A stretch of 64,000 nt of DNA from Verrucomicrobiales bacterium (GTDB lineage Bacteria > Verrucomicrobiota > Verrucomicrobiia > Limisphaerales > UBA11358): assembly GCA_028712475.1 (NCBI GenBank), contig JAQTQB010000010.1, positions 50,077-114,076 on the forward strand. Direction: 5' to 3'. A model generated the notes under the pieces. It was given only the letters and a program-made list of their open reading frames with translations, had not been told where the DNA came from and made no database searches. Shown here piece by piece: positions 1 through 16,264 of the stretch. The translations under genes and the position numbers were made by a program. Positions within the stretch are counted from its first letter, which is position 1, and each line of letters opens with the position of its first letter.

Positions 1-992
1 GCAGAAGATTCAGCAGCAGCATTATGTTTCGCGGCAATGACGGTCACGGACAGACGATCCCTCATCCGCATGTCCACCGCCGCGCCCATGATGATTTGCA
101 CGTGTTCGCAGTGGCGGCCGATCTGTTCCATCACGCGGTTCACCTCGGCCATCGTCAAATCTTTGCCGCCCATCAAACTCACCAGCACCGCGTCGGAATC
201 CGCCAGCGCGCGGCCTTCGTCGAGCAGCGGATGAATGAGCAGTTTTTCCACCACCTCGCGCGAACGTCCCGCGCCGCTGGCTTCGACAAACGCAAAGGAA
301 CTTTCCGAATGACGATTACGCACGAGCGCGCACAAGTCGTCGAAATGAATCTGGATCAGGCCGGGGCGCGTGAGCAGTTGCCACACGCCGCGCACGCCTT
401 CGACCAGCAATCCGCCCGTGATGCGAAACGTGTCGAGCACGCTGGTGTTCTCGTCAATCAGCTTGAACGCTTTCTGGCTCGGCAGGCAGATGACGCCGTC
501 GGCGACGGATTTGAGCTGCTCCAGGCTTTGCCTAGCCTGCTGCTGGCGGCGGTTGCCTTCGCACAAAAACGGCAGCGTGACAAACGCCAGCACCAATGCA
601 CCGGTTTCCTTGGCCGCGCGCGCCAGCACGGGACTGATGCCGCTGCCCGCGCCGCCGCCCAGACCGGAAATAATCAAAACCACATCCGCGCCTCCGCACG
701 CCGTCTTGAGCGTGGAGAATTGTTCCTCGGCGATGGCCTGGCCGCGTTCGGCATCGCCGCCGGTGCCAAGACCGCGCAACAATTTCGTTTCAAGATGGAT
801 TTTCACCATCGCCGCCGACGCCGCAAGCGATGTCCCGTCCGTATTGATGGCCACCATGCCTGCGCCGGCAAATTCCACGCCGTCCAGCGTGTCGAGCAGG
901 CTGACGCCCGCGCCGCCGACGCCGATGATTTTGATCGTGCGCATGTGATTCGATTTGAGTTCCACCGCCGGAGTTTCGGTTTTTGTTTTCAT
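1..992 (-). CDS. ftsZ: Cell division GTPase FtsZ (3' end truncated by window edge)
   Basis: Absent from the ORF track because it runs off the edge. My translation from the ATG at 992-990 gives MKTKTETPAVELKSNHMRTIKIIGVGGAGVS..AINTDG..GLGTGGDAERG..LIISGLGGGAGSGISP..FVTLPFLCEGNRR..PGLIQIHFDDL, which carries tubulin/FtsZ motifs. The gene starts 16 nt after the ftsA stop, the canonical dcw position. Confidence 0.85.
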   Translation of the reverse strand, partial: MKTKTETPAVELKSNHMRTIKIIGVGGAGVSLLDTLDGVEFAGAGMVAINTDGTSLAASAAMVKIHLETKLLRGLGTGGDAERGQAIAEEQFSTLKTACGGADVVLIISGLGGGAGSGISPVLARAAKETGALVLAFVTLPFLCEGNRRQQQARQSLEQLKSVADGVICLPSQKAFKLIDENTSVLDTFRITGGLLVEGVRGVWQLLTRPGLIQIHFDDLCALVRNRHSESSFAFVEASGAGRSREVVEKLLIHPLLDEGRALADSDAVLVSLMGGKDLTMAEVNRVMEQIGRHCEHVQIIMGAAVDMRMRDRLSVTVIAAKHNAAAESS

Positions 993-1008
993 GGCGAATG
1001 TATTTTGT

Positions 1009-2229
1009 TTAGCGGCGCAAAAAACTGGTGATGGTGCTTTTGATTCCCTGCGCGATGGACGTTTTGCCATCCGTGCGGCGGGATTTGACCGAGCCGAACT
1101 TGGCCAGCCCGATGGCGGTGACAAATTCCGGCTGATCCAACGCGGATTTCAGCCCGCTGATGGAATTGGTCTGGCCGATGGAAACCGGCAGTTGCAAAAT
1201 CCGCTCGGCGAGCGGCGCCATCTGCGGCACGCGCGCACCGCCGCCACAAAGAAAAACCCCGGCACGCAGATAATCCGTCAGCCCGGCCTGCTCCAAGTCC
1301 GACGCGATGATCTGGAAAATTTCCTCCAATCGCAGCGACATGATGCGCTGCAAATGTTCAACATTGATCGTCTTTAGCGGCAGGCCGAGTTCGTTCGTGA
1401 TGGTGAGCGTCCGTCCGATCATCGTCTCGTCCACGAGCGCGGAGCCGTGTTCGAGCTTCAATTTTTCCGCGCGGCTCAACGGCACTTTCAAGCCGTGACC
1501 GAGATCGTTGGAAACGTGGTCGCCGCCGACCGCCAGCACGCCGGTGTGCTTGATGACGCCATCGGCATAGACGACGTAATCCGTCGTGCCAGCCCCGATG
1601 TCAATGACCAGCGCGCCCAGCTCCTTCTGCTCGCTCGTCAGCAAGGCGAGCGACGAGGCCAGCCCGCTGGAAACAATTTCCTCCACCTTCAACTGCAAAC
1701 CTTTCACCAGCCGGATGGCGTTTTGCAGGCGGTTCGTGTTGCCGTGAACGACGTGCATGTCCACTTCGATCCGCGCGCCCAGCATCCCGACGGGATCGGT
1801 GACGCCGCCGTGGCCGTCCACCAAAAAGTGCTGGCGCACAGCATGGATGATGGTGTTTTCCGCCGGCAGATTGATCGCCTTCGCGTTTTTGACGACATCC
1901 TGCACGTCTTCCTTGGAGATTTCCCGGTCGGCGGAAACCACCGGATGCACGCCGCGATTGTTGAAACCGCGGATGTGCCCGCCGGTCACGCCCAGATAAA
2001 CGCTGCGGATTTCCACGTCGGCCATCTGCTCGGCCTCGACGATGGCGTTGCGCACGTCTTCCTCGACCATCGCGGCGTCGGCGATCTCGCCTTTGCGCAC
2101 GCCGCGCGAACGCGACTGGCCAAGCCCGACGATGTTCAGCGAACCGTCGTCGCCCTGCTCGCCAACGACGGCGCAGACTTTTGAAGTGCCGATCTCCAGG
2201 CCGACTATGATGTTGGACTCGTCAAACAT
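1009..2229 (-). CDS. ftsA: Cell division protein FtsA (actin-like ATPase)
   Basis: 406 aa. Contains VGLEIGTSKVCAVV and DIGAGTTD actin-fold phosphate motifs. Lies between ftsQ and ftsZ. Confidence 0.9.
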   Translation of the reverse strand: MFDESNIIVGLEIGTSKVCAVVGEQGDDGSLNIVGLGQSRSRGVRKGEIADAAMVEEDVRNAIVEAEQMADVEIRSVYLGVTGGHIRGFNNRGVHPVVSADREISKEDVQDVVKNAKAINLPAENTIIHAVRQHFLVDGHGGVTDPVGMLGARIEVDMHVVHGNTNRLQNAIRLVKGLQLKVEEIVSSGLASSLALLTSEQKELGALVIDIGAGTTDYVVYADGVIKHTGVLAVGGDHVSNDLGHGLKVPLSRAEKLKLEHGSALVDETMIGRTLTITNELGLPLKTINVEHLQRIMSLRLEEIFQIIASDLEQAGLTDYLRAGVFLCGGGARVPQMAPLAERILQLPVSIGQTNSISGLKSALDQPEFVTAIGLAKFGSVKSRRTDGKTSIAQGIKSTITSFLRR

Positions 2230-3181
2230 TTCTCCTCCGGGTTTTTGTGGGGGTGGATTTTTTCGGGGCGGTCACCGGCACGACGCTGGACGCCGCCCAA
2301 CGCACGGGAACGTTGTTGGACACGGCCAGATCCGCCGAAGCGATCGTCTTGCTCATGGTTTGTCCCAAATCATAAATTTTCCGCCAGCGCAACAATTGTT
2401 GCTCCAAGTTTTCCAAAGCGAAAGTGATTTCGCTCCCCTGCCCGGTCGTCGCCACAACCACGCCCGGCTGCGAAACGTCCACGCGCCGCAAGTCCACCAG
2501 CCCCGCCATCGGCGAATGGTCGAACGCGCCGATCAGCGCCAGGGCCGCCTGCACCTGCGGCGACTCGACGCGATGCCCCGGCTGCAATTGATAGACGTTC
2601 AGCCCCGTGATCACCGGCAACTGCTCGGTCATCTGCGCCAGTGGAATCACGCACAGGCGCGGGTCGAGCGGCTGCATGACGTTGCCGTCGGCGTCCACTT
2701 GAAAAACTGAAATGGCGATGCCACCGGCGCCACCCGCAGTCGGCACGTTCACCTGCGCCACCGGGTTGCGCTCGGTCACGCGAACTTTCAACGTGCGCGG
2801 CAGCACACGCTCAATCGAGACCGAATCAATCGTCGAAACCAGTTCCAAGTTGCGCTTCACCGAAGCCAGATCCAGCGCGATGAGATTTGCGCCGATCCGC
2901 ACGCGCGTCCAGCGGCGCAATTGTTCCGGCGCGATCACCCCGTCCGTCTGCACTTCGATGTTCTGGATGGCGAACGTGGAATTTTCATAGACGAATTTAT
3001 CCAGCGCCCACGCGCCCGTGCGCCACAGCAGATAAAGCCCGAACACCGTGCCGAACGTCACGCCCAGCGCGATGGACGCGAGCCGCGTGCGCGTCGCGCG
3101 CACCTGGTCGGAGCGCAGCTTCACGTCGAGCACACGCCCGCGATTCAACCGCCGGTTTTTTGGTTCACGCTTAAACCACAT
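2222..3181 (-). CDS. ftsQ: Cell division protein FtsQ/DivIB-like (bitopic, POTRA)
   Basis: Likely start is MWFKREPKNRR (internal Met of ORF 2222..3256). It has one TM helix (LASIALGVTFGTVFGLYLLW) followed by a POTRA-like region. Position is between ddl and ftsA. Confidence 0.7.
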   Translation of the reverse strand: MWFKREPKNRRLNRGRVLDVKLRSDQVRATRTRLASIALGVTFGTVFGLYLLWRTGAWALDKFVYENSTFAIQNIEVQTDGVIAPEQLRRWTRVRIGANLIALDLASVKRNLELVSTIDSVSIERVLPRTLKVRVTERNPVAQVNVPTAGGAGGIAISVFQVDADGNVMQPLDPRLCVIPLAQMTEQLPVITGLNVYQLQPGHRVESPQVQAALALIGAFDHSPMAGLVDLRRVDVSQPGVVVATTGQGSEITFALENLEQQLLRWRKIYDLGQTMSKTIASADLAVSNNVPVRWAASSVVPVTAPKKSTPTKTRRRNV

Positions 3182-3233
3182 TTGTTCAATTAAAAATTGT
3201 GAATTAAAAATTAAAAATGGCGGAGCGCGGGCT

Positions 3234-4259
3234 TTAGCCCGCTTCAACCCCTGCACCTGCCAGTTTGTTGGAAAAGGCCACGCCAGCCTTGCTCTCGCCT
3301 GTCAAAGCGGCATAAATGCCGCGCTCCGACAATCTCACACTTTTAATTTTTGATTTTTCATCCCGTTTCAGCGCCAGATCAATCATCCGCTGACACAATT
3401 CCGCATAACCCAGCCCCGCCTCCGCCGCCGCCTTTGGCAGCAAACTCGTCTCTGTCATGCCGGGCAGCGTGTTCACTTCGAGAACAACTGGCTCGCCATT
3501 TGAGCAAACCATCACGTCCACGCGCGCATAATCGCGTCCGCCAATCGCGTGAAACGCGCCGAGCGCGGCGTCCTGAATCCGCTTCGTCGCCGCCGCATCA
3601 AAATCTGCCGGGCAAAAATATTCCGTCTCTCCCGCCGTGTATTTGCTCCGCTCGTCATACCGGCCGGACTTGGGACGAACCTCAACGACCGGCAGCGCTT
3701 CGCCCGCCAAAATGCCCACCGTCGTCTCGCGCCCGACGATTCTTTCTTCGACCAGCAGTTGCGAATCGTAGCGGAACGCCTCGCGCAGTGCATTTTTCCA
3801 GTCCGACACGCGCTCCACGAACTGCAGGCCCACGCTCGAACCCTGCCGCACCGGTTTCACCACCAGCGGCGGCTGCCAGCCCATCGGCCACGGCGTTTTG
3901 GCGGATTCGACCACCAGAAATTTCGCCGTCGGAACCCCGGCCTCGATGCACCGCTGTTTCGTCAGCACCTTGTCGAACGCGATGCGGCTCGCCACGGCAT
4001 CGCAGCCGGTGTAAGGCACGCCGAGTTTTTCCAACTGTTGCTGCACCGTGCCGTCCTCGCCGTAGGTCCCGTGCAACGCCAGAAACACCGCGTCCGTGTC
4101 CGGCGGCAAAATCCAGTCCGGCTTTTCCGGATCCAGTTCCACCACCGTGTGGCCGAGCGAACGCAACGCCTTGGCCACCCCCGCGCCGGAATTCAGCGAG
4201 ACTTTCCGCTCGGCGCTGGGGCCGCCGAGCATCACCACAATTTTTAATTTTCCATGCAT
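3234..4259 (-). CDS. ddl: D-alanine--D-alanine ligase
   Basis: N-terminus reads MHGKLKIVVMLGGPSAERKVSLNSG, and the body has ATP-grasp character. I chose the internal Met so the gene abuts the murB stop at 4261. Confidence 0.9.
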   Translation of the reverse strand: MHGKLKIVVMLGGPSAERKVSLNSGAGVAKALRSLGHTVVELDPEKPDWILPPDTDAVFLALHGTYGEDGTVQQQLEKLGVPYTGCDAVASRIAFDKVLTKQRCIEAGVPTAKFLVVESAKTPWPMGWQPPLVVKPVRQGSSVGLQFVERVSDWKNALREAFRYDSQLLVEERIVGRETTVGILAGEALPVVEVRPKSGRYDERSKYTAGETEYFCPADFDAAATKRIQDAALGAFHAIGGRDYARVDVMVCSNGEPVVLEVNTLPGMTETSLLPKAAAEAGLGYAELCQRMIDLALKRDEKSKIKSVRLSERGIYAALTGESKAGVAFSNKLAGAGVEAG

Positions 4260-4260
4260 A

Positions 4261-5211
4261 TTAATCTTCGCCAATAATTTCAACTTCCGTGTGCAGTTCG
4301 ATGCCGCGCGCTTCCTTCGCCCGCGCCTGGAGCAGCGCAATCAATTCCAAAACGTCGCGCGCCGTCGCGGTGCCGCCGTTCACGACGAAATTGCCGTGCT
4401 CCAGCGAGACCATCGCCCCGCCGACATGCGCGCCTTTCAGCCCGATTTCATCAATCAATTTTCCCGCCGGAACCGCCGCCGTGTTTTTGAAAATGCAGCC
4501 GGCGCTCGGCGCGGCGGGCTGCGATTCCCAGCGCTTTTCGCTATATGCCATCATGCGCCGCTCGATCTCCGCGCGCGGCAGCGGCGTGCATTTGAACACC
4601 GCGCCCAGCGCAACGTGCGTTTTCAGCAGCGGGCACGCGCGATATTCCACCGGCACCTCGCCCGCGACGCGTTCGTGGATTTCACCGTCATAATCCATGA
4701 ACCGGAACGACTCGACCGCGCCAAACGTCGCCGCTCCCATCGCGCCCGCGTTCATGCGCAACGCGCCGCCGACGCTGCCGGGAATGCCTTCCAAAAATTC
4801 CACGCCGCTCAAATTGTTCCGTTTGGCTTCGACCGAAACATTCTTCAACTTCGCGCCCGCGCCGCAATGCAGCCGTTCGCCAACGATCTCAATCTTGCTG
4901 AAATGCGGATGCGCCAGACAGATCACCACGCCGCGCACGCCGCCGTCGCGCACGAGCAGATTCGAGCCGCGTCCAAGAATGAAAAATGGCACGTCACGGT
5001 CGCCGCAAAATTTCAGGACGTTCGCCAGATCCGCTTCCGACGCCGGTTCCACGTAAACATCAGCCGGGCCACCGATGCGCATGGTCGTGTGCTTCGCCAG
5101 CGGTTCATCGCGAAGGATCACGGTCGCGCGCAAAACGCGGGCGGCCAGTTCATCGGCAATGTTTTTTTCAATTCGCATCGGGCTTTCCAAAATGTTCGCG
5201 GCCGGCGTCAT
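4261..5211 (-). CDS. murB: UDP-N-acetylenolpyruvoylglucosamine reductase
   Basis: 316 aa. FAD-binding MurB-like sequence (HTTMRIGGPADVYVEP, GRGSNLLV). dcw context. Confidence 0.9.
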   Translation of the reverse strand: MTPAANILESPMRIEKNIADELAARVLRATVILRDEPLAKHTTMRIGGPADVYVEPASEADLANVLKFCGDRDVPFFILGRGSNLLVRDGGVRGVVICLAHPHFSKIEIVGERLHCGAGAKLKNVSVEAKRNNLSGVEFLEGIPGSVGGALRMNAGAMGAATFGAVESFRFMDYDGEIHERVAGEVPVEYRACPLLKTHVALGAVFKCTPLPRAEIERRMMAYSEKRWESQPAAPSAGCIFKNTAAVPAGKLIDEIGLKGAHVGGAMVSLEHGNFVVNGGTATARDVLELIALLQARAKEARGIELHTEVEIIGED

Positions 5212-5214
5212 GGT

Positions 5215-6429
5215 TCAATGCGCGTGTTTGGCCGGACCGTGCGCGTGGCCGCAGCCACAGGTTGATTTACGCGCGGCAACCGCTTCCTGCTGCTGCGCAA
5301 TCGCGGTCAAAATTATTTCCGCGATCTGTTCTGCCGCTGCCGGCGCGTGCCATTGGGTGAGCGCAGATTGCATTGCAACGCGGGTCGAATTGTTCTCAAC
5401 CAATTCGCATAGCAGCGCGGCGACTTTTTCGGGCGTGGAGTTTTTCTGTTCGAGCAGTTTTGCCGCGCCGGTTTTTTCAAACGCCAGCGCGTTTATAAAT
5501 TGATGATTATCCGCCGCCGCCGGATACGGCACGAGCAGCGACGGCAGCCGCATAGCCGCGATTTCCGCGAGCGACGACGCCCCGGCGCGGCTGACAGAAA
5601 CCGTCGCGGCACCGAGCGCCAGATCCATTTCGGCAAGGAACGGTTTGACCACCGCTTCGATTCCCCGCGCGGCATAAGCCTGTTTCACCTTTTCAAAATC
5701 ACTCGTGCCGGTGAGATGGAGCCATTGCCACGCGGAGGCACGGTCACCAAGCGCAGGCAGCGCAGACAAAACCATGTCGTTCAGTCCGCTTGCGCCCTGG
5801 CTGCCGCCCATGACCAGAACGACAGGACGGTTTGGATCAAGGCCGAGGGCGATGCGAAATTCCTTCAGTTTGGACTCGACGGAGTCTCGCCCCACCGGAT
5901 TTTGGTCTGCCGCAAATTGCGGGCGGACGGGAGTGCCGGTGGTCGTGACCTTGCGCGCCTTCAACCGCGAACCGGCATCGGGAAATCCGACGAACGCCCC
6001 GTCCACGAACCGGGATAGAAAACGGTTGGCGCGTCCGGGGATAGTGTTGGATTCGTGCAGGAAAGTTTTCGCGCCGCAGTCCTTGGCGGCGAGAATTGGT
6101 GGCGCGCTGGTGAATCCACCCATCGCCAGAACTGCGTCGGGCTTGCGTTGTTTGAAAAACTTGGACGATGCGCGCCACGATTGCCAGAAGCTGCGGCCGA
6201 ACGAAAAGTAATTGCGGTTTTGCAGCGCGACGGCGGGCAGTGTGAAAATTTCCATGCCACGCGCCGATTTCACGGCTTGTTGATCCACGTCCTTGGGCGA
6301 GATGAGCAGCGCGACGGTGCAGCCGCGTTTCTGGAGCTGTTGGGCGACGGCAAGCCCCGGAAAGAGATGCCCGCCCGTGCCGCCACAGGCGATGGCGACA
6401 AAGGGCGATTTGGCGGCGGATGAACTCAT
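5215..6429 (-). CDS. murG: UDP-N-acetylglucosamine--N-acetylmuramyl-(pentapeptide) pyrophosphoryl-undecaprenol GlcNAc transferase, with a Cys/His-rich C-terminal tail
   Basis: GGTGGHLFPG motif and glycosyltransferase-28 layout. Overlaps the ftsW stop by 4 nt. Confidence 0.9.
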   Translation of the reverse strand: MSSSAAKSPFVAIACGGTGGHLFPGLAVAQQLQKRGCTVALLISPKDVDQQAVKSARGMEIFTLPAVALQNRNYFSFGRSFWQSWRASSKFFKQRKPDAVLAMGGFTSAPPILAAKDCGAKTFLHESNTIPGRANRFLSRFVDGAFVGFPDAGSRLKARKVTTTGTPVRPQFAADQNPVGRDSVESKLKEFRIALGLDPNRPVVLVMGGSQGASGLNDMVLSALPALGDRASAWQWLHLTGTSDFEKVKQAYAARGIEAVVKPFLAEMDLALGAATVSVSRAGASSLAEIAAMRLPSLLVPYPAAADNHQFINALAFEKTGAAKLLEQKNSTPEKVAALLCELVENNSTRVAMQSALTQWHAPAAAEQIAEIILTAIAQQQEAVAARKSTCGCGHAHGPAKHAH

Positions 6430-7583
6430 GTGGCTTTGGCGGCAAACGGATTATCGCCGTGGTCGGCGGCGGATTCGGAAACTTTTTCACGCACGTGCGC
6501 CTGCCGCGCGACGCTGAACAGCAGCCCGATGCATGTCAGCATCGCCAGCAGGTTCGAGCCGCCGTAACTGATGAACGGCAGCGGCAAACCCTTGTTCGGC
6601 AGCGCGCTGGTGACGACACCGATGTTGATGGCGGCTTGCAGGCTGATGAGAAAGGTGATCCCGGATGCGAGCAAAAATCCAAAGGTGTCGCGCGCGTGCA
6701 TCGCGATGTAAATGCCGCAAACGGCCATGACGACGAACGCCACCACGACAAACAGCGTGGCCACCAAGCCAAGTTCCTCGCCGATGTTTGCGAAAATAAA
6801 GTCGGTGTGGATTTCGGGCAGCCAGCCAAATTTCCGCACGCCGTTGCCGAGGCCGACGCCGAACCAGCCGCCGTTGCCGAGGCCGAGCATGGCCTGTTGC
6901 GCCTGCAACGCCGCGCCATTGAGATGATCCTCGGGATGCAGCCACGCGAAGATTCGCCCCATGCGCATCGGGTCGTGCAAAATGGAAACCACCAGCCCCG
7001 CCGCGCCCGCCGCCGCTGGAATCAAAATGTGCTTCCACTGAACCCCGGCGATCAGAAGCATCACCCCGGTGACAGCGGACAACAGGATGGTTGTGCCGCG
7101 GTCAGGTTCAACAAAGATGAGGCCGAGAATCAAACCGGCCATCGCCGCCGGAAATAAAATCCCGCGTTTGAAGGTGTGCATCTGGCGCTGATAACGGTCG
7201 CCATACCACGCGAGCATGATGATGAGCGTGATTTTGCCGAGTTCGGAGGGTTGAAAAGAGAACGGGCCGAACCCGATCCAGCGATGCGCGCCGTGGCTGG
7301 CACGTCCGATGTGCGGCACGAACACCAGCCCCAGCAAGAGCAGCGCAAAAATGAAAACCGGCCAGGCGAATTTTTTCAACAGTTGATAGTTGAGCGCCGT
7401 CGCCGTGACGCAAAAAACGAAACCGACGGCACACCACATGAGCTGCATTATCAGGTCGTGCGCGCCGGTTTCCACATGGGTTTTACGGTTTTCCAGCGCC
7501 CAGCTTGAGCTGTAGAGCATCACCAGACCCAGCGCGAGCAGGGCGGCGGCGCAAAAAGCCAGAGTTGTGACGGCGACTTTCAT
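6426..7583 (-). CDS. ftsW: SEDS-family peptidoglycan polymerase FtsW
   Basis: 385 aa polytopic membrane protein with FtsW/RodA-like sequence (PSELGKITLII, FISYGGSNLL). Confidence 0.9.
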   Translation of the reverse strand: MKVAVTTLAFCAAALLALGLVMLYSSSWALENRKTHVETGAHDLIMQLMWCAVGFVFCVTATALNYQLLKKFAWPVFIFALLLLGLVFVPHIGRASHGAHRWIGFGPFSFQPSELGKITLIIMLAWYGDRYQRQMHTFKRGILFPAAMAGLILGLIFVEPDRGTTILLSAVTGVMLLIAGVQWKHILIPAAAGAAGLVVSILHDPMRMGRIFAWLHPEDHLNGAALQAQQAMLGLGNGGWFGVGLGNGVRKFGWLPEIHTDFIFANIGEELGLVATLFVVVAFVVMAVCGIYIAMHARDTFGFLLASGITFLISLQAAINIGVVTSALPNKGLPLPFISYGGSNLLAMLTCIGLLFSVARQAHVREKVSESAADHGDNPFAAKAT

Positions 7584-7625: not shown

Positions 7626-8339
7626 TCACTTCGCAGGCTCGGTGGCCGGAACGACAGGCGCGGGCGCAACGGGAGCCGGTTCAACCAGCGGCGCGGGCAC
7701 CGCAACTGCCGCCTTCGCCGGGATTTTCAGCTTCTGCCCGGCCTTGATGCTGGTGGTGACCAGATTGTTTTCGGCCTGAATCGCCTTTACGGTCGTGCCA
7801 TGCAGCTTCGCAATCTTTGTCAAGGTATCGCCGGATTTGACGACATAGATTTCCACGCCGCCCGTTGAATCCATCGCCGCCGGTGCAACCGTGCCAGCCG
7901 TTCCGGCAGGGATCACAAGCTTCTGTCCGATTTTAAGCTTGGTCGGAACCACGCCGGGGTTCGCCGCTTCAAGCGCCTTGACCGTCACATGATTGCTCTT
8001 CGCAATTTTATCAAGCGTATCGCCCTTGACGACGACGTATTCAGCCCCGGCAGTTTCAACCGGAGGAACAATGGCCGGCGGCATCACCGCGACCGGCAGA
8101 TTCGTATCCACCACGGGAGCATTCGTGTCGGCGCTCGTCAGCAGGTTCGTGTCAATCGTCGGCGTGGTCATGTCGGTCTCGACAGGCTGCTCGCGCTTGC
8201 AACCCTGGATCAGCATCACCGCGAGGCCGGTGACGGCAACCGTCAACGAGCAGAACACCGCAAGTTTCAAACGCGAACGGCGCTTGCTTTGCAGTTCAAG
8301 GATTGAGCCTTTGGGAACGAATGGGTTTGTGTTGTTCAT
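7626..8339 (-). CDS. Bitopic membrane protein with two C-terminal LysM peptidoglycan-binding domains
   Basis: Short N-terminal segment, one TM helix (LAVFCSLTVAVTGLAVMLI), a Pro/Thr-rich linker, then two LysM repeats (YVVVKGDTLDKIAK.., YVVKSGDTLTKIAK..). It sits where murD normally lies. Confidence 0.8.
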   Translation of the reverse strand: MNNTNPFVPKGSILELQSKRRSRLKLAVFCSLTVAVTGLAVMLIQGCKREQPVETDMTTPTIDTNLLTSADTNAPVVDTNLPVAVMPPAIVPPVETAGAEYVVVKGDTLDKIAKSNHVTVKALEAANPGVVPTKLKIGQKLVIPAGTAGTVAPAAMDSTGGVEIYVVKSGDTLTKIAKLHGTTVKAIQAENNLVTTSIKAGQKLKIPAKAAVAVPAPLVEPAPVAPAPVVPATEPAK

Positions 8340-8626: not shown

Positions 8627-9814
8627 TCACCTCAACTTCAGCGTGGCCAGCGCGACGACCGCGAACAGCACGCACAAAATGTAAAAACGCATCACCACCT
8701 GCGATTCGTGCCAGCCCTTTTTCTCGAAATGATGATGCAGCGGCGCCATCAAAAACACCCGCCGCCCCGTGCCGTAGCGTCTTTTTGTATATTTGAACCA
8801 GCCGGTCTGGACCAGCACCGACGCCGCTTCCAAAACAAAAATTCCGCCCGCGATCACCAGCACGAACGGCTGATGGATCAGCACCGCGATGATGCCAAAC
8901 GCGCCGCCGAGCGCGAGCGATCCCGTGTCGCCCATGAACACCTGCGCCGGATGGCAGTTGAACCATAAAAATCCCAGCCCAGCGCCCAGCAGCGCCGCGC
9001 AAAACACGGTCAGTTCGCCCGCGCCCGGCACAAAGGGGATCTGCAGATACGCCGCCGCCTTCACGTTGCCCGCGAGATAGGTGAAAAATAGAAAAACAAA
9101 ACCCACGATCAGCGTGCAGCCGATCGCCAGCCCGTCAAGGCCGTCCGTCAAATTCACCGCGTTCGAGCTGCCGACAATTGCGAGCAGCACAATCAGCACG
9201 CCCATAATCGCCCCCACTTCATACGGATATTTACAAAACGGCAGCATCAGGTCGCTGACGAGATTGCTGTGCATGTGGATGATGGATTTTTTCCCGGGGA
9301 ACTGCAGATCGCTCATCGCCGGAAGCTTCAAAAGATAAATGCCGACGAACAATCCGAGCGCGGTCTGCACCAGAAGCTTCACGCGCGGCGGAGTTCCGCC
9401 GCCGCTTTGCCGGACGATTTTCGCGTAGTCGTCATAAAATCCCAGCCCCGCCAAAACCAGAACCGAGAGCATGGTCAGTTCCACCTGCGCGTTCCATTGC
9501 GCCCAAAGCATCGTCGTAAAAACCAGCACCATCACGATCAGCACCCCGCCCATCGTCGGCGTGCCTTTCTTGTTCACGCGGGTATTGGACACGCCCGCCT
9601 CCTCGGCCTTGTCCGCGTAGTCCTGGCCGAATTTCAAATCCTTGAGCCAGCGGATGATTTTTGGGCCAAGCCACCAGCTTAAAACCAGCGCGGTGATCGC
9701 CGCGCCCGCGCTGCGAACCGTGATGTAGCGGAACAGGCGCAGAAACGAGAGCCGGCCTTCCCATGCCGTCCCGTGCGACCAATCCAAGATTTGCTGGCTC
9801 AAATAGCAGAGCAT
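8627..9814 (-). CDS. mraY: Phospho-N-acetylmuramoyl-pentapeptide transferase
   Basis: 395 aa polytopic protein with MraY-like motifs (KGTPTMGG, NAVNLTDGLDGLA, HHHFE). Confidence 0.92.
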   Translation of the reverse strand: MLCYLSQQILDWSHGTAWEGRLSFLRLFRYITVRSAGAAITALVLSWWLGPKIIRWLKDLKFGQDYADKAEEAGVSNTRVNKKGTPTMGGVLIVMVLVFTTMLWAQWNAQVELTMLSVLVLAGLGFYDDYAKIVRQSGGGTPPRVKLLVQTALGLFVGIYLLKLPAMSDLQFPGKKSIIHMHSNLVSDLMLPFCKYPYEVGAIMGVLIVLLAIVGSSNAVNLTDGLDGLAIGCTLIVGFVFLFFTYLAGNVKAAAYLQIPFVPGAGELTVFCAALLGAGLGFLWFNCHPAQVFMGDTGSLALGGAFGIIAVLIHQPFVLVIAGGIFVLEAASVLVQTGWFKYTKRRYGTGRRVFLMAPLHHHFEKKGWHESQVVMRFYILCVLFAVVALATLKLR

Positions 9815-9820: not shown

Positions 9821-11206
9821 TCACATTTTTTCCGACTTCAAAGTTTCTGCGATGCGTTCCAGACGCGACGCCCGCGACGCCTTCAACAAAACCACATCAC
9901 CCGCCTTCAAAAAATTCTTCACCGCTGTCACCGCCGCTTCCACGTCAGCAAATTCAATCACGCGGGTCAATCCCGCCTGCCGCGCCGCATCCGCCATGAC
10001 CGGCGCCATTTTCCCGACGGCGAACAATTGCCCGACTCCCAATTCCGCCGCGCGCTTGCCAACTTCCGCGTGCGCCGCCTCGCTGTGCGCACCGAGTTCT
10101 TCCATGTCGCCCAGCACCGCCACGCGCCGCCCTTGCAACGGCAGGTCGCACAATGTTTCCAGCGCGGCAACCGTCGAGTCCGTGTTTGCGTTGTAGGCGT
10201 CGTCCAGCACTCGCACGCCGTTCGCTTCCCAAAATTGCAGCCGCATCTTCGGTGGCTGGCACCCGGCCAGTCCACGCTGGATTTCAGCGCGATCCAAACC
10301 CAGTTCCGCCCCAACTGCGACCGCAAACATGGCGTTTGCCACCTGATGACGGCCAAGCAGATTGACCCGATACTCACCGCTCAATTCTTTCTGCGGCGCG
10401 TCCACCTGAAACGTCACGCCATTTTTGTCCAGGCGGATTTTCTTCGCGCACCAGCCGTTCTTTTCGTTCAGCCCGACGCAAATAACTTTTGCTTTTGTGC
10501 GCGCTGCAATTTTTCCCGTCCACTCATTGTCGCCGTTGATAAAAAGCTTCCCGTCCGCCGGCAACAATTCCGCGAGCCGGCCTTCCTCCTGTGCAACGCC
10601 CGCGACATCGCCAAAAAATTCCAGATGCTCGCGGCCGATATTTGTCAGCACGCCGAACTTCGGCTGGATCATTTTTACGAGCGGCGCAAGTTCGCCCGGA
10701 TGATTTGTGCCCGCTTCCAGCACTGCGGCCTGATGCGATTTTCCCAGCCGCAGCAGCGTCGCCGGCACGCCGATGTCGTTGTTGAAACTCGCCTCGCTCC
10801 ACAACGTCGAAAATTTCTGGCGCAAGACGGACGCAAGCAATTCCTTCGTCGTCGTCTTGCCATTCGAGCCGCCGACCACAATGACCGGCAACGTGAAATC
10901 TTTCCGATACGCCGCCGCCAGCTTGCCGAACGCAGCGCGAACATCATTCACGACCAGCACGGCGCAATCCGGCAGCGGCGCGGGAATTTTTTTCCTTTCT
11001 ACGACGACCGCCGTCACGTCTTTGGCCGCGGCTTCATTGAGGAATTCGTGACCGTCAAAGTGTTCGCCTTTGATGGCGAAGAACAAATCACCCGGCTTGG
11101 CCTGCCGCGAATCGGTGCAGATATTTTCCACCGGGGCTTCCGCCGCGCCGCGCCGGATTTCTCCCGCGCAGGCATCAGCGACAAATTTCAAAGAGCGTGT
11201 TTCCAC
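9821..11206 (-). CDS. murF: UDP-N-acetylmuramoyl-tripeptide--D-alanyl-D-alanine ligase
   Basis: 461 aa. Mur ligase P-loop GSNGKTTTKE and N-terminal TDSRQAKPGDLFFAIKGEHFDGHEF. Confidence 0.9.
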   Translation of the reverse strand: METRSLKFVADACAGEIRRGAAEAPVENICTDSRQAKPGDLFFAIKGEHFDGHEFLNEAAAKDVTAVVVERKKIPAPLPDCAVLVVNDVRAAFGKLAAAYRKDFTLPVIVVGGSNGKTTTKELLASVLRQKFSTLWSEASFNNDIGVPATLLRLGKSHQAAVLEAGTNHPGELAPLVKMIQPKFGVLTNIGREHLEFFGDVAGVAQEEGRLAELLPADGKLFINGDNEWTGKIAARTKAKVICVGLNEKNGWCAKKIRLDKNGVTFQVDAPQKELSGEYRVNLLGRHQVANAMFAVAVGAELGLDRAEIQRGLAGCQPPKMRLQFWEANGVRVLDDAYNANTDSTVAALETLCDLPLQGRRVAVLGDMEELGAHSEAAHAEVGKRAAELGVGQLFAVGKMAPVMADAARQAGLTRVIEFADVEAAVTAVKNFLKAGDVVLLKASRASRLERIAETLKSEKM

Positions 11207-11211
11207 TTAAA

Positions 11212-11943
11212 TCATTTCAGCAAAAATGTGGCCGTGACGACGGCGGTGATGGTTTTCTGGCTCGAACTGGTGTCGCTCTCGCCTTCCCAGCTCGTCCGCG
11301 TGGCGTGGCGCGGCGTGATCTGGAACACGCCCATGTCGGCGTCATGCAAACTGGCAATGGTGCGTCCGCCCTGCGTGGCGATCTGTTCGGCGCGGGCGCG
11401 GGCGTCCTTGGTCGCATCGGCCAGCATTTCGACCTTGGCCTCGCCCGCCTTGGTGTAGATGAACTGCGGCAGGTCGGTAGTAAAAATCATTCCCTGTTCG
11501 ACCAGCGGCGCAGTATCGAGCCGGTCAATCCGGTCTATCTCCCCGCTCTCGACGCGCACGCTCTGGCTCAAGCGATAACCGGTGGTGCGCTGCTGCACCC
11601 AGCCCGACGCGTCCTTGAGCGATGCCTTGATTTCCTCAATGTTGATGGGCGTAAAAACAAAATTGGTGATGCCGCTGCCGGTCAAAAATTGTTCCACTTT
11701 CACACGGTTGGCCTTCAATGCGCGCTGGGCTTCAAGCAACTCTGCGGCTTCCCCGGAAAAATTCCCCCGCCAGACCACCAGGTCGGACTCGATGTTTTTG
11801 TGGGTCGAGCCTTTGACGGTGACAAACTGCGAATTTTTTATCTTCACCCATGCGGTCGTGCCAAGCATGGAGGAAAAAATCAGGCCGGCGGCAAGAAAAA
11901 GGCCGGCGAGCATTCCAAAAAGTTGCGGGCGTGAATGGTTCAT
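11212..11943 (-). CDS. SIMPL/DUF541-like periplasmic protein with an N-terminal TM anchor
   Basis: 243 aa. N-terminal TM helix followed by a SIMPL-like pattern (..YRLSQSVRVES.., ..ARARAEQIA..). Overlaps the ftsI stop by 4 nt and occupies the usual murE slot. Confidence 0.65.
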   Translation of the reverse strand: MNHSRPQLFGMLAGLFLAAGLIFSSMLGTTAWVKIKNSQFVTVKGSTHKNIESDLVVWRGNFSGEAAELLEAQRALKANRVKVEQFLTGSGITNFVFTPINIEEIKASLKDASGWVQQRTTGYRLSQSVRVESGEIDRIDRLDTAPLVEQGMIFTTDLPQFIYTKAGEAKVEMLADATKDARARAEQIATQGGRTIASLHDADMGVFQITPRHATRTSWEGESDTSSSQKTITAVVTATFLLK

Positions 11944-13862
11944 GGCGTCTGCATATTATTCCGGGTTTGCGCCGAGGCGACAACGGCCGGTGCCGCAGCG
12001 GGCGGAGGCGAAATTTGATCCGGCGGAATGTTCAGGTAGCTCGCACAGCGTTTCCCGATTTCGCTGAAAACCGGGCCGCAGAGTGCGCCGCCAAAAGCGC
12101 GGCCACCTTCCTTGGCCGAGTCCATCACGATGGAAATGCAAAGCTCCGGATTGTCCGCCGGGAAAAATCCGATGAACGAGACGACAAACTTTTCGGAGGA
12201 ATACCGGCCATCCACGACTTTTTGCGCCGTGCCGGTTTTGCCGGCGACCGTATAATTGGTGATCGCCGCGAGCGGTGCCGTGCCTTCTTTGCTCACGACC
12301 GTTTTCAACGCTTCGATCATTTGCTTCGCCGTGGATTCCGTCACGACGCGCCGGACGCTTTGCGGTTCGTAGCGCTGCACCACATTCCCGTTCTGGTCTT
12401 CCAGGCGCTTCACCAGCATCGGATGCATGAGCACGCCGCCGTTGGCAATCGCGCCGAACGCCATCGCCATTTGCAGCCGGGTCGCGGCCACGCCCTGCCC
12501 CATCGGAATCTGGACGATGGAATACTTGCCTTTCAACGGATGAACATACCGGCTGGCGCTGGCTTCGTGTGGCAGGGGAATTCCCGTGAAAGCGCCGAGG
12601 CCAAAATCCTGCATGTATTCATAAAGTTTCGGCGCCTGAAGTTGAATCCCGATTTTCGACGCGCCGATGTTCGAGGATTTTTGAAGGACTTGCTGCACGG
12701 TCAGGTTGCCAAAATGATGGCCTTCCGAATCATGCAACGTGATGCCGCCATAACGAAAAACCCCGTTCTCGCAAAAAACCGAATCGCTCAACTTCACCAC
12801 CTTCTCGTTCAGCGCGCCCGAAATCACAAGCGTCTTGAACGTCGAGCCCGGCTCCATCACGTCGCTGATCACGCGGTTCGGCTCGGTGTTCGTGTTGATG
12901 CTGCGGAGATTGTTGGGGTCAAAACTTGGCAGCGACGCCATCGCCAGAATTTCCCCCGTGCGCGGGCGCATCACGATGCCGGTGATGCCCTGGGGCGCGT
13001 GTTTTTCCGCCGCATTGGTGAGTGCAGATTCAACGATGTGCTGGATCGCCGCGTCAATCGTCAGCACCACGTTCAAACCGCCTTGCGCCTGGACGTCCTC
13101 ATCCCGCAGCGCGACCAGTTCTTTGCCACGACTGTCAGATCCCGTCACGCGCCAGCCGGACGCACCGCGCAATTTGTCGTCGAAAAATTTTTCAACGCCG
13201 TCGTAGCCGAACAACTCCGACGTGTGGTTGGTGTTTTCCAAAGTGCCGACGAATCCCAGGACGTGCGCCGCCAGCGGGCCGTTGGGGTATACCCGCAACT
13301 GATCCGGCTCGGCGGAAATCGCGTATTGGCGCAGGCTGCGTAAAAACGCGCGGTTGGCCTTGGATAATTTCTTTTCATCCACGCCAAAAGTGAGCTGGCT
13401 CATCCTGGTCTTGATTTTCTGCCACGTCTCATCCGTGACATTTTTCTGGAGCCGGACGTAATGCAACCCATTGGTGACCGTTTCGCCCTTGGAATTTTTC
13501 GCCACGCGCGGAATCAGCCGTTGATACAAATCCGCCCCGCTCATCCCCAGCAGCGGCGCAATCGCCCGCGCCACGATTGCCTGCTGGCCGCCAATCAACG
13601 TTGGATCCGCGCAGATCGTCTTCACGAAAACGCTCGTTGCGAGCTGGTTGCCGTTCGCGTCCAGAATGTCGCCGCGCTTCGCCGGGTGCCAGGTGGTCTG
13701 CAGCGATTTTTTCTCGGCCATTTTCACCAGCTCATCGTGCCGCCACACCTGCAAGTCCATCAGCCGGAAACCCAGCCCGACGAACGCCAGGACGACCAGC
13801 CCCAGCAATGCCAGCGCACGAATGAATTGTTGCCGCCGTTTGATCATCCTAAAAACGGCCAA
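11940..13862 (-). CDS. ftsI: Penicillin-binding protein 3-like transpeptidase FtsI
   Basis: 640 aa. N-terminal TM helix, then STFK (EPGSTFKTL), SSN (KSSNIGA) and KTGT (AGKTGTA) motifs. Confidence 0.9.
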   Translation of the reverse strand: MAVFRMIKRRQQFIRALALLGLVVLAFVGLGFRLMDLQVWRHDELVKMAEKKSLQTTWHPAKRGDILDANGNQLATSVFVKTICADPTLIGGQQAIVARAIAPLLGMSGADLYQRLIPRVAKNSKGETVTNGLHYVRLQKNVTDETWQKIKTRMSQLTFGVDEKKLSKANRAFLRSLRQYAISAEPDQLRVYPNGPLAAHVLGFVGTLENTNHTSELFGYDGVEKFFDDKLRGASGWRVTGSDSRGKELVALRDEDVQAQGGLNVVLTIDAAIQHIVESALTNAAEKHAPQGITGIVMRPRTGEILAMASLPSFDPNNLRSINTNTEPNRVISDVMEPGSTFKTLVISGALNEKVVKLSDSVFCENGVFRYGGITLHDSEGHHFGNLTVQQVLQKSSNIGASKIGIQLQAPKLYEYMQDFGLGAFTGIPLPHEASASRYVHPLKGKYSIVQIPMGQGVAATRLQMAMAFGAIANGGVLMHPMLVKRLEDQNGNVVQRYEPQSVRRVVTESTAKQMIEALKTVVSKEGTAPLAAITNYTVAGKTGTAQKVVDGRYSSEKFVVSFIGFFPADNPELCISIVMDSAKEGGRAFGGALCGPVFSEIGKRCASYLNIPPDQISPPPAAAPAVVASAQTRNNMQTP

Positions 13863-13925
13863 CCGCCCGTGGCTTTCGGTCCCTCAACCGAAGGTGTCAC
13901 GGGCGGCGGCCAAAAGTTTTCATGT

Positions 13926-14309
13926 TTATTGTGTCCTCGCGTCCGCCTGCCGCACGGCAAGCTGGCGCGGTAAATTTTTATTCTCCGGCGCGACAACCGG
14001 AGTTTCCTGCAGCCGGAAAACATTCATCGGCGGCACCGGCCCCAGTCCGAGTTTCAACTCCCGCGCCCGCTGGTCGAGCATCACCGGCGAACGCAGCAAT
14101 CCGAGCTGGTCGTCCAGTTTTTTATTGTCGCGCGCCAGTTGCGCCAGGCGGACTTCCTTTTGGTGAATCTGTTTTCCAAGCTGGTAAATCTGGCTTTTCT
14201 GCCAGACGTAACCAACCGCCGAACCCGCGATCAGCAGGCACAAAAACAACGCCTTCAACGCCGGACCGAACCGGATCGCCGCCGACTGATTTTTTCGATT
14301 TTTTGCCAT
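13926..14309 (-). CDS. ftsL: FtsL-like bitopic cell division protein
   Basis: I take the internal start MAKNRKNQSAA.. because it abuts the rsmH stop. One TM helix (LFLCLLIAGSAVGYVW) followed by a coiled-coil segment. Position between rsmH and ftsI. Confidence 0.6.
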   Translation of the reverse strand: MAKNRKNQSAAIRFGPALKALFLCLLIAGSAVGYVWQKSQIYQLGKQIHQKEVRLAQLARDNKKLDDQLGLLRSPVMLDQRARELKLGLGPVPPMNVFRLQETPVVAPENKNLPRQLAVRQADARTQ

Positions 14310-14310
14310 C

Positions 14311-15243
14311 TTAAATTTTCTCCAGCACCCGCAATTGTGCGCTGCGGCTGCGCGGGTTTTCTTCCATCTCAACTTCACCCGGGAGAATCGCCTTGCGGCT
14401 CACCCATTTCAGTTCCGGCACGCACGGCTGCCGCAACTCCGGCACATCCACCCCGCCGCTGAACTTGTAATCACGCGTCCGTTCGCGGCCAAATTCCTTC
14501 ACCACGCGGTCTTCAAGCGAGTGAAACGTGATGACCGCCAGCCGCCCGCCCGGCTTCAAAATTTTCGCCGCCGCCGCCAGCCCGCGTTTCAAAGAACCGA
14601 TCTCGTCGTTCACCGCGATCCGCAACGCCTGAAAAACCTTGGTGGCCGGATGCGACTTTTTTCCACGGCGCGGGGCCAGCCGTTCGATCAATTCCGCCAA
14701 CTGTCTGGTCGTCGTAAATTTTCGCAGCGCGCGGTCATGAACAATTGCCTTCGCAAAACGCCGCGAATCCCGTTCATCACCAAACTCCCAAAAAATTTTC
14801 GCCAGTTCCCCGGCGCTCAAATCGTTTACCAAATCCGCCGCCGTCTGCGGTTGCCGGTCGTCCATCCGCATGTCCAGCGGGCCGTCCTGTTGAAAACTGA
14901 AGCCGCGTTCCGCTGAATCCACTTGTGGCGAGCTCACGCCCAAATCCAGCAGCACGCCATCGCAGCTCGCCGCCGGAATCCAGTCCGCCAGCTCCGAAAA
15001 ATTGCCGCGCCGGATCTCAAACCGCCCGGCAAATTTTTCCGCCAGCCGTTTCTGCGCGGTTTCAACCGCGACGCCATCGCGATCGCACCCAGACAGCCAT
15101 CCAGTCGGCGAGCTCGCGGCCAGTATTGCTTCCGCGTGACCAGCTCCACCGAGCGTTCCGTCGGCGTAACGGCCGTTCGCCTGCGGCTTCAGGGCGTCCA
15201 GCACCTCCGCCGCCATCACTGATTTGTGAATGAAATCGGACAC
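14311..15243 (-). CDS. rsmH: 16S rRNA (cytosine1402-N4)-methyltransferase
   Basis: 310 aa. HKSVMAAEVL and GTLGGAGH motifs. dcw position. Confidence 0.92.
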   Translation of the reverse strand: MSDFIHKSVMAAEVLDALKPQANGRYADGTLGGAGHAEAILAASSPTGWLSGCDRDGVAVETAQKRLAEKFAGRFEIRRGNFSELADWIPAASCDGVLLDLGVSSPQVDSAERGFSFQQDGPLDMRMDDRQPQTAADLVNDLSAGELAKIFWEFGDERDSRRFAKAIVHDRALRKFTTTRQLAELIERLAPRRGKKSHPATKVFQALRIAVNDEIGSLKRGLAAAAKILKPGGRLAVITFHSLEDRVVKEFGRERTRDYKFSGGVDVPELRQPCVPELKWVSRKAILPGEVEMEENPRSRSAQLRVLEKI

Positions 15244-15263
15244 GGCTCATTGTTTTCGTCGCG

Positions 15264-15794
15264 TTAAAGTGCGGTTGCCTTCATGATGCGTTCGCCCAAA
15301 ACTTCCCACGATCTTTTCGACGGCTGCAAATCCGCCAGCGCCGGTTCGGGTGCCGGGCGTGATTTCATCGGGACAATCTCCACGTCCGCATCGGTCAAGT
15401 CGTTGTGAACCACCTTCACCTTTTCCAGGGAAAGCTCGGCCTGCACAGTCGCCATGCCTTCATCCACGACGTCCGGCGCGGTGCGGAAAAGTGAAACGGG
15501 ATTCAACTTGCTCACCCAGGTCGCCGCGCGGGTCGGTCCCGCCTGCGCTGCAACCACGGGCATTTTCCGCGTTTTCATCCAGGGCAGCGTCGTATTTTTT
15601 CCCGTCAGCTCTGCGGGTTTTTTCGCCGCCGGCTTCGGCAGTTCAACCTGCGTCGCGCCCGTGGCCATCGTTGCAAACGGATTTTTCGGTGAAACAAATT
15701 GCGGCAGATAAAACCGCTTGTCCGTGCGATATGCGGCAGGCTTGCCGCCGCTGATGAAACTTTTCCCGGCTCCAAGTAGTTTTCCAAGGTTCAT
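15264..15794 (-). CDS. Hypothetical Pro/Ala/Lys-rich protein inserted between mraZ and rsmH
   Basis: 176 aa ORF that starts 5 nt after the mraZ stop and ends 20 nt before the rsmH start. I recognise no TM helix and no known motif. Confidence 0.5.
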   Translation of the reverse strand: MNLGKLLGAGKSFISGGKPAAYRTDKRFYLPQFVSPKNPFATMATGATQVELPKPAAKKPAELTGKNTTLPWMKTRKMPVVAAQAGPTRAATWVSKLNPVSLFRTAPDVVDEGMATVQAELSLEKVKVVHNDLTDADVEIVPMKSRPAPEPALADLQPSKRSWEVLGERIMKATAL

Positions 15795-15799
15795 ATTTT

Positions 15800-16264
15800 T
15801 TATTCCATGAGTTTGAAGGCTTCGGTCGCCATCACCGCGTCCGTCGCCTTCACGGTTTCGTAACGGGTCGGATTCCAGATCTCAAAACGGTCGAGCAGGC
15901 CGACGAGCATGACCTCGTCCTTGATGCCCGCCGCGCGCGCCATCTCATCCGGCAGGCAAATCCGACCAGCTTTGTCGAGACTCACCTGGACGGATTCGCT
16001 GCCGATAAATCTTTTGAGGACGACCTTGTTCGGATCGCCGTTGGGCATCGCGTCTATGTCTGCCATCATTTGCGCCATCTCCAGCGGCGGCAATACCCGC
16101 AGACAATTTCCCGCCTGATGCTTCGGCCAGAGAATCATCGTCAGCTCGACACCCTCTTTTTCGGGCCGCCACTTGGCCGGAACCTGAACGCGCCGCTTCT
16201 CATCCACTCCGTGCCGATAGCACGAATTGTAATAAGTCGGTTCCTTTGTTTGCGTCTCGCTCAT
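15800..16264 (-). CDS. mraZ: Transcriptional regulator MraZ
   Basis: 154 aa with the duplicated SpoVT/AbrB-like halves (VDEKRRVQVPAKW and LDKAGRICLPDEM). First gene of the dcw cluster. Confidence 0.9.
   Translation of the reverse strand: MSETQTKEPTYYNSCYRHGVDEKRRVQVPAKWRPEKEGVELTMILWPKHQAGNCLRVLPPLEMAQMMADIDAMPNGDPNKVVLKRFIGSESVQVSLDKAGRICLPDEMARAAGIKDEVMLVGLLDRFEIWNPTRYETVKATDAVMATEAFKLME

Follow-up and report, generated by a model that had tools for sequence, protein, structure and literature searches.

Probable stepwise erosion of the dcw operon in a Limisphaerales lineage, with a putative murD remnant downstream of mraY

In Escherichia coli, the cluster of genes for division and the cell wall (dcw) follows the order mraZ-rsmH-ftsL-ftsI-murE-murF-mraY-murD-ftsW-murG-murC-ddlB-ftsQ-ftsA-ftsZ. 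Partly dispersed clusters, with Mur ligase genes outside the recognizable cluster, are known as well: murC and murF lie outside the cluster of Bacillus subtilis, and murE lies apart from murF in Chlamydia trachomatis. Described Limisphaerales (Pedosphaera, Limisphaera) are coccoid. This shape fits the reported link between cell form and dcw organization, where gene order is conserved in rods and rearranged in Gram-positive and non-rod species (PMC10214165). Verrucomicrobiota have been described as encoding all dcw genes, with high conservation across the phylum and Verrucomicrobium spinosum as the model (PMC12283558). The V. spinosum cluster holds murE and murD, with murB and murC located elsewhere (PMC1845146), and the organism carries an essential MurC-MurB fusion (PMC12283558). 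Here, we analyze the dcw cluster in a 64,000-nucleotide stretch (the window) of contig JAQTQB010000010.1, positions 50,077 to 114,076, from a Verrucomicrobiales bacterium of the order Limisphaerales (assembly GCA_028712475.1). The cluster lacks murE, murD and murC, and comparison with its relatives makes it likely that the operon underwent stepwise, lineage-specific erosion that left a ghost of murD behind, with the ligases encoded elsewhere and the pathway itself canonical.

V. spinosum locus tags hint that its murE, murD and ftsW lie outside the cluster. This placement was rejected because all three are located within it (PMC1845146); the out-of-order tags probably stem from re-annotation. 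Fontisphaera persica is listed in the supplementary data of PMC12283558, and a literature search on Pedosphaera and mur genes returned nothing specific.

A dcw cluster without murE, murD and murC

The cluster occupies the first 16,264 nucleotides of the window and comprises the following features, given in gene order:

15800-16264, minus strand: mraZ (PF02381, E 2.4e-14), which heads the cluster in every relative
15264-15794, minus strand: orf176, 176 aa, no Pfam or NCBIfam family
14311-15243, minus strand: rsmH (mraW; PF01795, E 9e-104)
13926-14378, minus strand: ftsL (PF04977 DivIC and TIGR02209/NF053549 FtsL, all weak)
11940-13862, minus strand: ftsI, PBP3-type transpeptidase (PF03717 and PF00905)
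11212-11943, minus strand: SIMPL/DUF541 gene (PF04402, 75.9 bits versus a gathering cut-off of 25.2, profile positions 1-205 of 205)
9821-11206, minus strand: murF (TIGR01143, 407.8 bits versus a cut-off of 288.6; PF01225, PF08245 and PF02875)
8627-9814, minus strand: mraY (PF00953 and MraY_sig1)
8336-8623, minus strand: orf95, 95 aa, no Pfam or NCBIfam family
8397-8432, minus strand: RNA hairpin within the 3' part of orf95 (RNAalifold consensus)
7626-8339, minus strand: gene for a protein with two LysM domains (PF01476 twice, E 4e-32, 110.3 bits)
6426-7583, minus strand: ftsW (PF01098, E 4e-95)
5215-6429, minus strand: murG (TIGR01133, 278 bits versus a cut-off of 250)
4261-5211, minus strand: murB, 316 aa (NF010480, 320 bits versus a cut-off of 259; FAD_binding_4 and MurB_C)
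3234-4340, minus strand: ddl (NF002378, 330.8 bits versus a cut-off of 243)
2222-3256, minus strand: ftsQ (PF08478 POTRA_1)
1009-2229, minus strand: ftsA (PF14450 and PF02491)
1-992, minus strand: ftsZ, 5' part only, the gene running out of the window start (orthologues in relatives carry PF00091 and PF12327)

Each gene call of the original prediction was reproduced at its coordinates and on its strand, as was the absence of the three ligase genes. The junctions it described are exact, with 4-nt overlaps at ftsI/SIMPL and ftsW/murG and a 3-nt gap between murG and murB. Further inspection reveals a 3-nt gap between mraY and orf95 and a 4-nt overlap between orf95 and the LysM gene. Two starts were likely called too far upstream: the true start of ftsL is likely the ATG at 14309, consistent with a 127-aa gene called on an identical Logan contig, and that of ddl is likely the ATG at 4259.

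The block is co-oriented and contiguous, begins with mraZ-rsmH-ftsL-ftsI and ends with ftsQ-ftsA-ftsZ, as expected of a dcw cluster. It departs from the canonical form in that no murE precedes murF, no murD follows mraY and no murC follows murG. Scoring of the murF product with MurE, MurD and MurC models gave best scores far under their cut-offs. In tblastn searches with MurC, MurD and MurE queries from both E. coli and the lineage, murF was the only Mur ligase detected in the window, and no Mur ligase domain was present in its other open reading frames (ORFs) of at least 430 aa. The window MurB carries MurB domains only and is not a MurC-MurB fusion.

Like the canonical cluster of E. coli and the near-canonical one of V. 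spinosum, the window holds 13 canonical genes in the same order, on the same strand and tightly coupled, with mraZ first and ftsQAZ last. Its murB lies within the cluster, as in many non-enteric clusters. It differs from the E. coli cluster in the three missing ligase genes and in the additional orf176, SIMPL gene, putative murD ghost and candidate LysM lipoprotein gene. Placement of Mur ligases outside the recognizable cluster is shared with the partly dispersed clusters of V. spinosum, C. trachomatis and Gram-positive or non-rod species. Unlike those clusters, the present one lacks three of its four ligase genes while all else persists as a compact operon, and intermediates, including the apparent ghost ORF, have been caught.

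To place the window among its relatives, one genome per species was scanned with the window MurF, yielding 80 loci at 69-83% identity. Their titles are nearly all Limisphaerales, Verrucomicrobiia or Verrucomicrobia subdivision 3, with peat, palsa or soil origins. Mapping of the window proteins onto these loci revealed the same gene order in 80 of 80 and murE, murD or murC within the cluster in none. The original prediction had proposed a comparison of dcw synteny across related taxa and had viewed the arrangement as stable rather than as a recent disruption; the order lacking all three genes is indeed lineage-wide, common to all 80 species-level genomes. The ftsI-murF gap measures -25 to +31 nt in 45 relatives and about 730-1000 nt, filled by a SIMPL gene, in 33. 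The mraY-ftsW gap is always 984-1506 nt, corresponding to the orf95 slot plus the LysM gene, and the median murG-murB gap is 11.5 nt. Public metagenomes contain this lineage in great abundance: the best 120 of 7302 MurF matches (E<=1e-40) are all at least 78% identical.

These comparisons leave next to no probability that the missing genes reflect an assembly or binning artefact. Such an artefact might be suspected where the window's nearest public copy is a short Logan contig and many relatives are metagenome-assembled genomes (MAGs). However, identical junctions recur in 80 independent assemblies and run from gene to gene with gaps or overlaps of 0-30 nt, and the same junctions are found on long-read contigs of 0.3-4.6 Mb, which refutes this explanation. 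At loci L003, L007, L029, L042, L043, L046, L048, L057, L058, L067, L071, L072 and L074, the cluster sits in records titled after unrelated taxa (Methylomirabilota, Bifidobacteriaceae, Aquilonibacter, Limnocylindrales, Acidiferrales, Sulfotelmatobacter, Pseudomonadales), which are probably mislabelled or contaminated MAGs. A search of a plasmid collection for verrucomicrobial murF and murE returned unrelated taxa only.

Three states of the cluster and the origin of orf95

Relatives that fall just outside the 80-species clade were obtained from a metagenome scan seeded with the motif of the murD relic described below and from a protein search with intact lineage MurD, for which the best 120 matches were listed and 6 contexts looked up. 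Together with the clade itself, they present the cluster in three states. State A is represented by L094, an 85-kb contig with the order mraZ-orfX-rsmH-ftsL-ftsI-murE-murF-mraY-murD-LysM-ftsW-murG-murC-murB-ddl-ftsQ-ftsA-ftsZ and proteins 62-77% identical to those of the window, and by L123, with murE-murF-mraY-murD-LysM. State B, found in 6 of the 6 MurD contexts looked up (among them assemblies GCA_035495315.1, GCA_016307145.1 and GCA_037025565.1), reads mraY-murD-LysM-ftsW-murG-murB without murE or murC. Its MurF is 64-70% identical to that of the window, and its murD is under purifying selection, with a ratio of nonsynonymous to synonymous substitution rates (dN/dS) of 0.09-0.14. State C comprises the window and the 80 species, with no murE, murD or murC in the cluster.

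It follows that the LysM gene and orf176 were already in the cluster while it was canonical, and that murE and murC left earlier and cleanly. The exit of these two genes is described as clean because a search of state-C loci for remnants of them found nothing at E<=0.05. The original prediction had cast the LysM gene as part of a replacement for murD. This role is contradicted by its position 3' of murD (or its relic) and 5' of ftsW in states A, B and C, that is to say, between an intact murD and ftsW both in the sister lineages and in the fully canonical relative.

The loss of murD, by comparison, can be followed in several loci. In L085 (3-984), murD is near full-length and frameshifted into two overlapping frames. 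L087 (1630-2277) carries a 216-aa ORF joining MurD residues 5-46, 118-163 and 302-464, and L084, whose MurF groups with state B, retains a 3' murD relic from about residue 360-384. Relics of the 3' part of murD are also present in L074 and L080. The breakpoints of L085, L087 and L084 are not the one common to the clade of the window, an indication that murD was lost independently and decayed in place more than once.

The original prediction regarded orf95 as part of what fills the murD slot. Inspection of the slot across relatives indicates instead a decayed, internally deleted murD in near-neutral evolution. Just 3' of mraY in L074, E. coli MurD matches by tblastn with 50% identity over its last 34 residues, LSPACSSFDQFRN, and MurD of L083 matches L074 with 54.5% identity over 77 residues (tblastn, E 4e-17). 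The slot ORFs of L074 and L035 match TIGR01087 at positions 392-438 (E 6e-5) and 400-432 (E 3e-3) of 441. An iterative profile started from the window orf95 recovers a homologous stop-free segment in 74 of the 74 loci having both flanking genes, and these segments, including those of L074 and L035, align position by position. Because a hidden Markov model (HMM) of the orf95 family gave no match to E. coli MurD, lineage-specific MurDs were needed to link the two. An HMM of length 472, built from 120 lineage MurDs, detects the slot segment at E<=0.01 in 29/74 loci versus 0/55 off-frame controls. Nearly all of these alignments begin at about position 398, which indicates a single shared deletion breakpoint.

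Related relics match MurD only at about positions 390-470 of 472, and orf95 itself gives no match to the full-length MurD model TIGR01087 (cut-off 211.95). On these alignments, orf95 is to be regarded as a fragment descended from murD and not as a MurD enzyme. Its first ~13 codons (MTLTLNKN...) resemble the MurD N-terminus (MfdLeNKdVLVIG), which is why it is best read as an in-frame internal-deletion allele in which the murD start was kept. It would thus be made up of about the first 13 codons and about codons 398-460 of murD, followed by readthrough into the former murD-LysM spacer.

Selection acts very differently on this stub and on its neighbors. For orf95, dN/dS is 0.78. This contrasts with 0.14 for mraY, 0.16 for murF and 0.19 for both ftsW and murG (0.13-0.19 for the retained genes overall), 0.12-0.15 for the SIMPL gene, 0.23-0.28 for the LysM gene and about 0.30-0.32 for orf176. 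The claim that murF, mraY, murG, murB and ddl are intact was upheld, and the retained genes are under purifying selection.

Mechanism and competing explanations

These observations suggest the following course of events. The ancestral state A would have been a canonical cluster extended by two genes, orf176 behind mraZ and a putative LysM lipoprotein gene separating murD from ftsW. Clean excision of murE and murC would have produced state B, and an in-frame internal deletion of murD would then have produced state C, reducing murD to the ghost orf95 of ~95 codons. The ghost would start at the mraY stop and in most species run through the old murD-LysM spacer, where a conserved RNA hairpin lies, to an ATGA overlap with the start of the LysM gene. 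A SIMPL/DUF541 gene may have been inserted later between ftsI and murF and lost again in many species. A second ligase set elsewhere possibly made the in-cluster copies dispensable, in which case the pathway would be canonical, and repeated in-place decay of murD is what would be expected if a second copy is present. Translation of the ghost ORF might link mraY to the expression of LysM-ftsW-murG or avert polarity, which would account for its open frame; selection would then act on translation through the stub and not on its amino-acid sequence. With its start 3 nt past the mraY stop, its TGA overlapping the LysM ATG and a frame that stays open while the sequence drifts, orf95 resembles translationally coupled genes with ATGA junctions and spacer or leader ORFs. 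It differs from known translated spacer or leader ORFs in being, by its predicted descent, a pseudogene remnant of an essential enzyme gene.

Several points weigh against this reconstruction. The window's own orf95 scores E 0.82 against the lineage MurD HMM, at the same coordinates as its relatives but not significant alone, and its assignment is one of transitive homology through better-preserved relics and shared breakpoints. L085 and L087 are short metagenome contigs whose frameshifts could be assembly errors. A neighbor-joining tree of a single gene, murF, underlies both the order from A through B to C and the gains and losses proposed for SIMPL, and we infer, rather than observe, the coupling through the ghost ORF and the roles of the LysM and SIMPL proteins. 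Moreover, murC, murD and murE have not been seen outside the cluster: the scan used murF, and 6 of 6 sampled MurD matches were in-cluster copies of state B. The relic-seeded metagenome scan likewise gave only in-cluster murD, relics or unrelated phyla, a diverged or xenologous copy being undetectable in this way.

An alternative to erosion is that SIMPL, orf95 and LysM were recruited into vacated slots as functional replacements that compensate for the lost ligases. Their tight coupling to adjoining genes through 4-nt overlaps, the purifying selection on SIMPL and LysM and the peptidoglycan binding of LysM domains (PF01476) would all suit such a role. The distribution of the three genes makes it quite improbable, however, and already contradicts it for orf95 and for the timing of LysM. 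LysM stands alongside an intact murD in states A and B, and orf95 is a nearly neutral murD fragment. SIMPL is present in 33 of 78 relatives and absent from the other 45, where ftsI abuts murF, as well as from states A and B, so the gene is an accessory insertion; no ligase-like domain is found in SIMPL, orf95 or the LysM protein. The notion of slots taken by replacement genes, as originally put forward, thus fails in all three cases. For orf95 alone, it could also be argued that a new gene, coding for a genuine small protein, was born from the murD remnant. In 47 of 74 loci, an uninterrupted frame extends from the mraY stop as far as an ATGA (or 8-nt) overlap with LysM, and both ends of the ORF are coupled to adjoining genes. 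Stops appear strongly avoided: the relic frame holds 0.34 per locus, compared with 3.4-6.2 for the other two and 4.7 for shuffles, although the relic frame was picked as the one holding the homologous stop-free segment and is biased to few stops. We regard a functional small protein as unlikely, given that the dN/dS of orf95 far exceeds the 0.13-0.32 of real genes, that truncations or frameshifts interrupt the ORF in about 15 species and that it has no Pfam or NCBIfam match. Its sole conserved peptide, GIFRGK, coincides with the site of a covarying RNA hairpin; because the hairpin is conserved, the same DNA reads GIFRGK or, in a different frame and in other species, EFFEGK.

The retained genes are intact and constrained, and therefore peptidoglycan synthesis is presumably active, with MurC, MurD and MurE supplied from elsewhere. 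In state B, a constrained murD persists in a cluster without murE and murC, so that ligase genes outside the cluster must already be present in this order, and we consider that the canonical ligases are very probably encoded elsewhere in the genome. A lineage devoid of MurC, MurD and MurE (or at least of MurD), building its stem peptide by a non-canonical route, would also explain why no murC, murD or murE was detected in the window or within +-10 kb of murF in the 80 relatives, why 0 of 6 sampled close MurD homologues lie outside a dcw cluster and why murD decayed in place instead of moving. Such a route would supply UDP-MurNAc-tripeptide to MurF by Mpl-type or Mpl-like ligation of scavenged or preformed peptide or through an unrecognized or unrelated ligase. 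This reading is very improbable. Strong purifying selection acts on the intact genes murF, mraY, murG, murB, ddl, ftsW and ftsI, MurF needs UDP-MurNAc-tripeptide, and the sister group keeps its constrained murD even though its cluster lacks murE and murC. Out-of-cluster Mur ligase genes are common in other bacteria (PMC1845146, PMC10214165), and the genome sequence examined amounts to 64 kb.

As far as the tools tell, the window thus represents a lineage-specific rearrangement and an operon erosion of known type, not a new cell-wall route; it would be highly interesting in the latter respect only if whole-genome searches failed to find the ligases. A large, environmentally dominant order with a strongly reduced dcw cluster nonetheless qualifies the published phylum-wide conservation. 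It also provides a counter-example to the inference of Mur enzyme assembly from gene order (PMC10214165), with MurF, MraY and MurG coupled and MurC, MurD and MurE uncoupled. The graded series from full cluster to murD only to apparent murD ghost illustrates how an essential gene may exit an operon, and a ghost ORF that keeps its frame open despite a drifting sequence offers a testable case of a pseudogene remnant serving as a translated spacer. For annotation, hypothetical proteins resembling orf95 in thousands of metagenomic contigs would be murD remnants and not genes of unknown function.

Accessory genes, the RNA hairpin and neighboring features

The hairpin at 8397-8432, about 60-90 nt upstream of where LysM starts, consists of a 13-bp stem with the loop UCGAGGGA and a minimum free energy of -16.5 kcal/mol. 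Across loci the loop reads U(U/C)GAGGGA and contains an A-N-GGA motif. It occurs in the same place in L002-L081, L084-L094, L115, L123 and L163-L173, irrespective of whether murD is intact or a relic, and nothing else in the orf95 slot is well conserved. An RNAalifold consensus of 49 sequences from states A-C reveals compensatory changes in 10 of the 13 pairs. Paired cells make up 91.3% of the alignment stem, compared with 79.5% in shuffles, none of which attains that figure in 500, and with 35-60% when partners are slid. No Rfam match was found for the hairpin at E<=1, and it was rejected as a standard intrinsic terminator because no U-run follows the stem. The ribosome-binding site of LysM, about 55 nt downstream of the hairpin loop, contains another GGA, a layout that we take to be reminiscent of CsrA-type two-site regulation. 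Between the LysM Shine-Dalgarno sequence (GAAAGGA) and the ATG, a second short conserved inverted repeat (GACGC...GCGCC, 8340-8365, minus strand) with a 6-bp stem could modulate LysM translation.

In states A-C, the LysM protein begins with the motif MNxPNP[FL]VPQGS..., followed by basic residues and a hydrophobic segment; its two LysM domains come after a low-complexity linker. The hydrophobic segment ends in L-x-[Q/A]-G-C (QGC in the window, AGC in L090 and L092). Set against the lipobox L-[ASTVI]-[GAS]-C, the protein presents ...LL-x-[Q/A]-G-C after this segment, with an atypically long n-region. Pfam and NCBIfam searches detected no M23/LytM and no SPOR domain. Identity with NlpD, ActS or DipM was rejected, with scores of 29-62 bits versus cut-offs of 311-900 confined to the LysM part and no M23 Pfam match; identity with FtsN was likewise rejected, as the C-terminal SPOR domain is missing and the resemblance is limited to general architecture. 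That architecture is shared with NlpD, ActS and DipM (LysM plus LytM) and with FtsN (SPOR), which are envelope-anchored proteins with a low-complexity linker, C-terminal peptidoglycan-binding domains and division-gene neighbors. Unlike these, the window protein carries, ahead of its signal-like segment, a highly conserved N-terminal extension of unusual length. By analogy, it may work like septal peptidoglycan binders, and its domain content and conserved position suggest that the putative lipoprotein is a peptidoglycan-binding component of the divisome. An Amidase_3 gene (AmiA/B/C-like N-acetylmuramoyl-L-alanine amidase) lies at 18954-20012 on the minus strand, 2.7 kb upstream of mraZ, in a neighborhood (queA, ribD-C-like, amidase) that is conserved in L169 and L172. 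Its product is a possible candidate partner of the putative LysM lipoprotein.

The window SIMPL protein matches PF04402 over the full length of the model and carries an N-terminal membrane anchor or signal. The SIMPL/DUF541 family includes Brucella BP26 and E. coli YggE and is not known to have a function linked to division. Location inside a dcw operon, with a 4-nt overlap with ftsI, sets the window gene apart from known family members. Its presence is patchy on the MurF tree, where about 14 changes are needed and the two most basal state-C loci carry the gene; this single-gene neighbor-joining tree weakly suggests one early insertion and many losses. SIMPL is an optional passenger of the operon, an accessory insertion and not a stand-in for murE, and its product may be a periplasmic accessory.

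The gene orf176, an unstudied dcw component specific to this lineage, is carried by every relative, including those in states A and B, and is under purifying selection. State-B loci hold a small conserved ORF of 65-72 aa in the old murE place between ftsI and murF (L163 7065-7262, L167 7191-7406, L170 7152-7358, L173 3180-3398), with the sequence MNSLPFISHHLF... and the N-terminus M[NS]SLP[FL]ISHHLF[VA]AA. It was rejected as a murE relic, as no similarity to MurE is detectable. In L074 and L080, which are basal within state C, weak traces of it occur upstream of SIMPL.

Outside the cluster, a 513-aa ORF of the EPSP-synthase family (31943-33484, minus strand) was considered as MurA and rejected as AroA-like. 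It scores 272.7 bits against TIGR01356, slightly below the cut-off of 287, in two matched stretches, and seemingly contains an insertion or extension relative to that model. Within the cluster, the window FtsZ (1-992) reads GVGGAG near its N-terminus where a glycine-rich loop of the GGGTGxG type is usual. It is 41-66% identical to state-A and state-B FtsZ, compared with 70-83% for FtsA in the same comparison. Divergent FtsZ has been reported in Verrucomicrobia (PMC1845146), and the window FtsZ fits this description.

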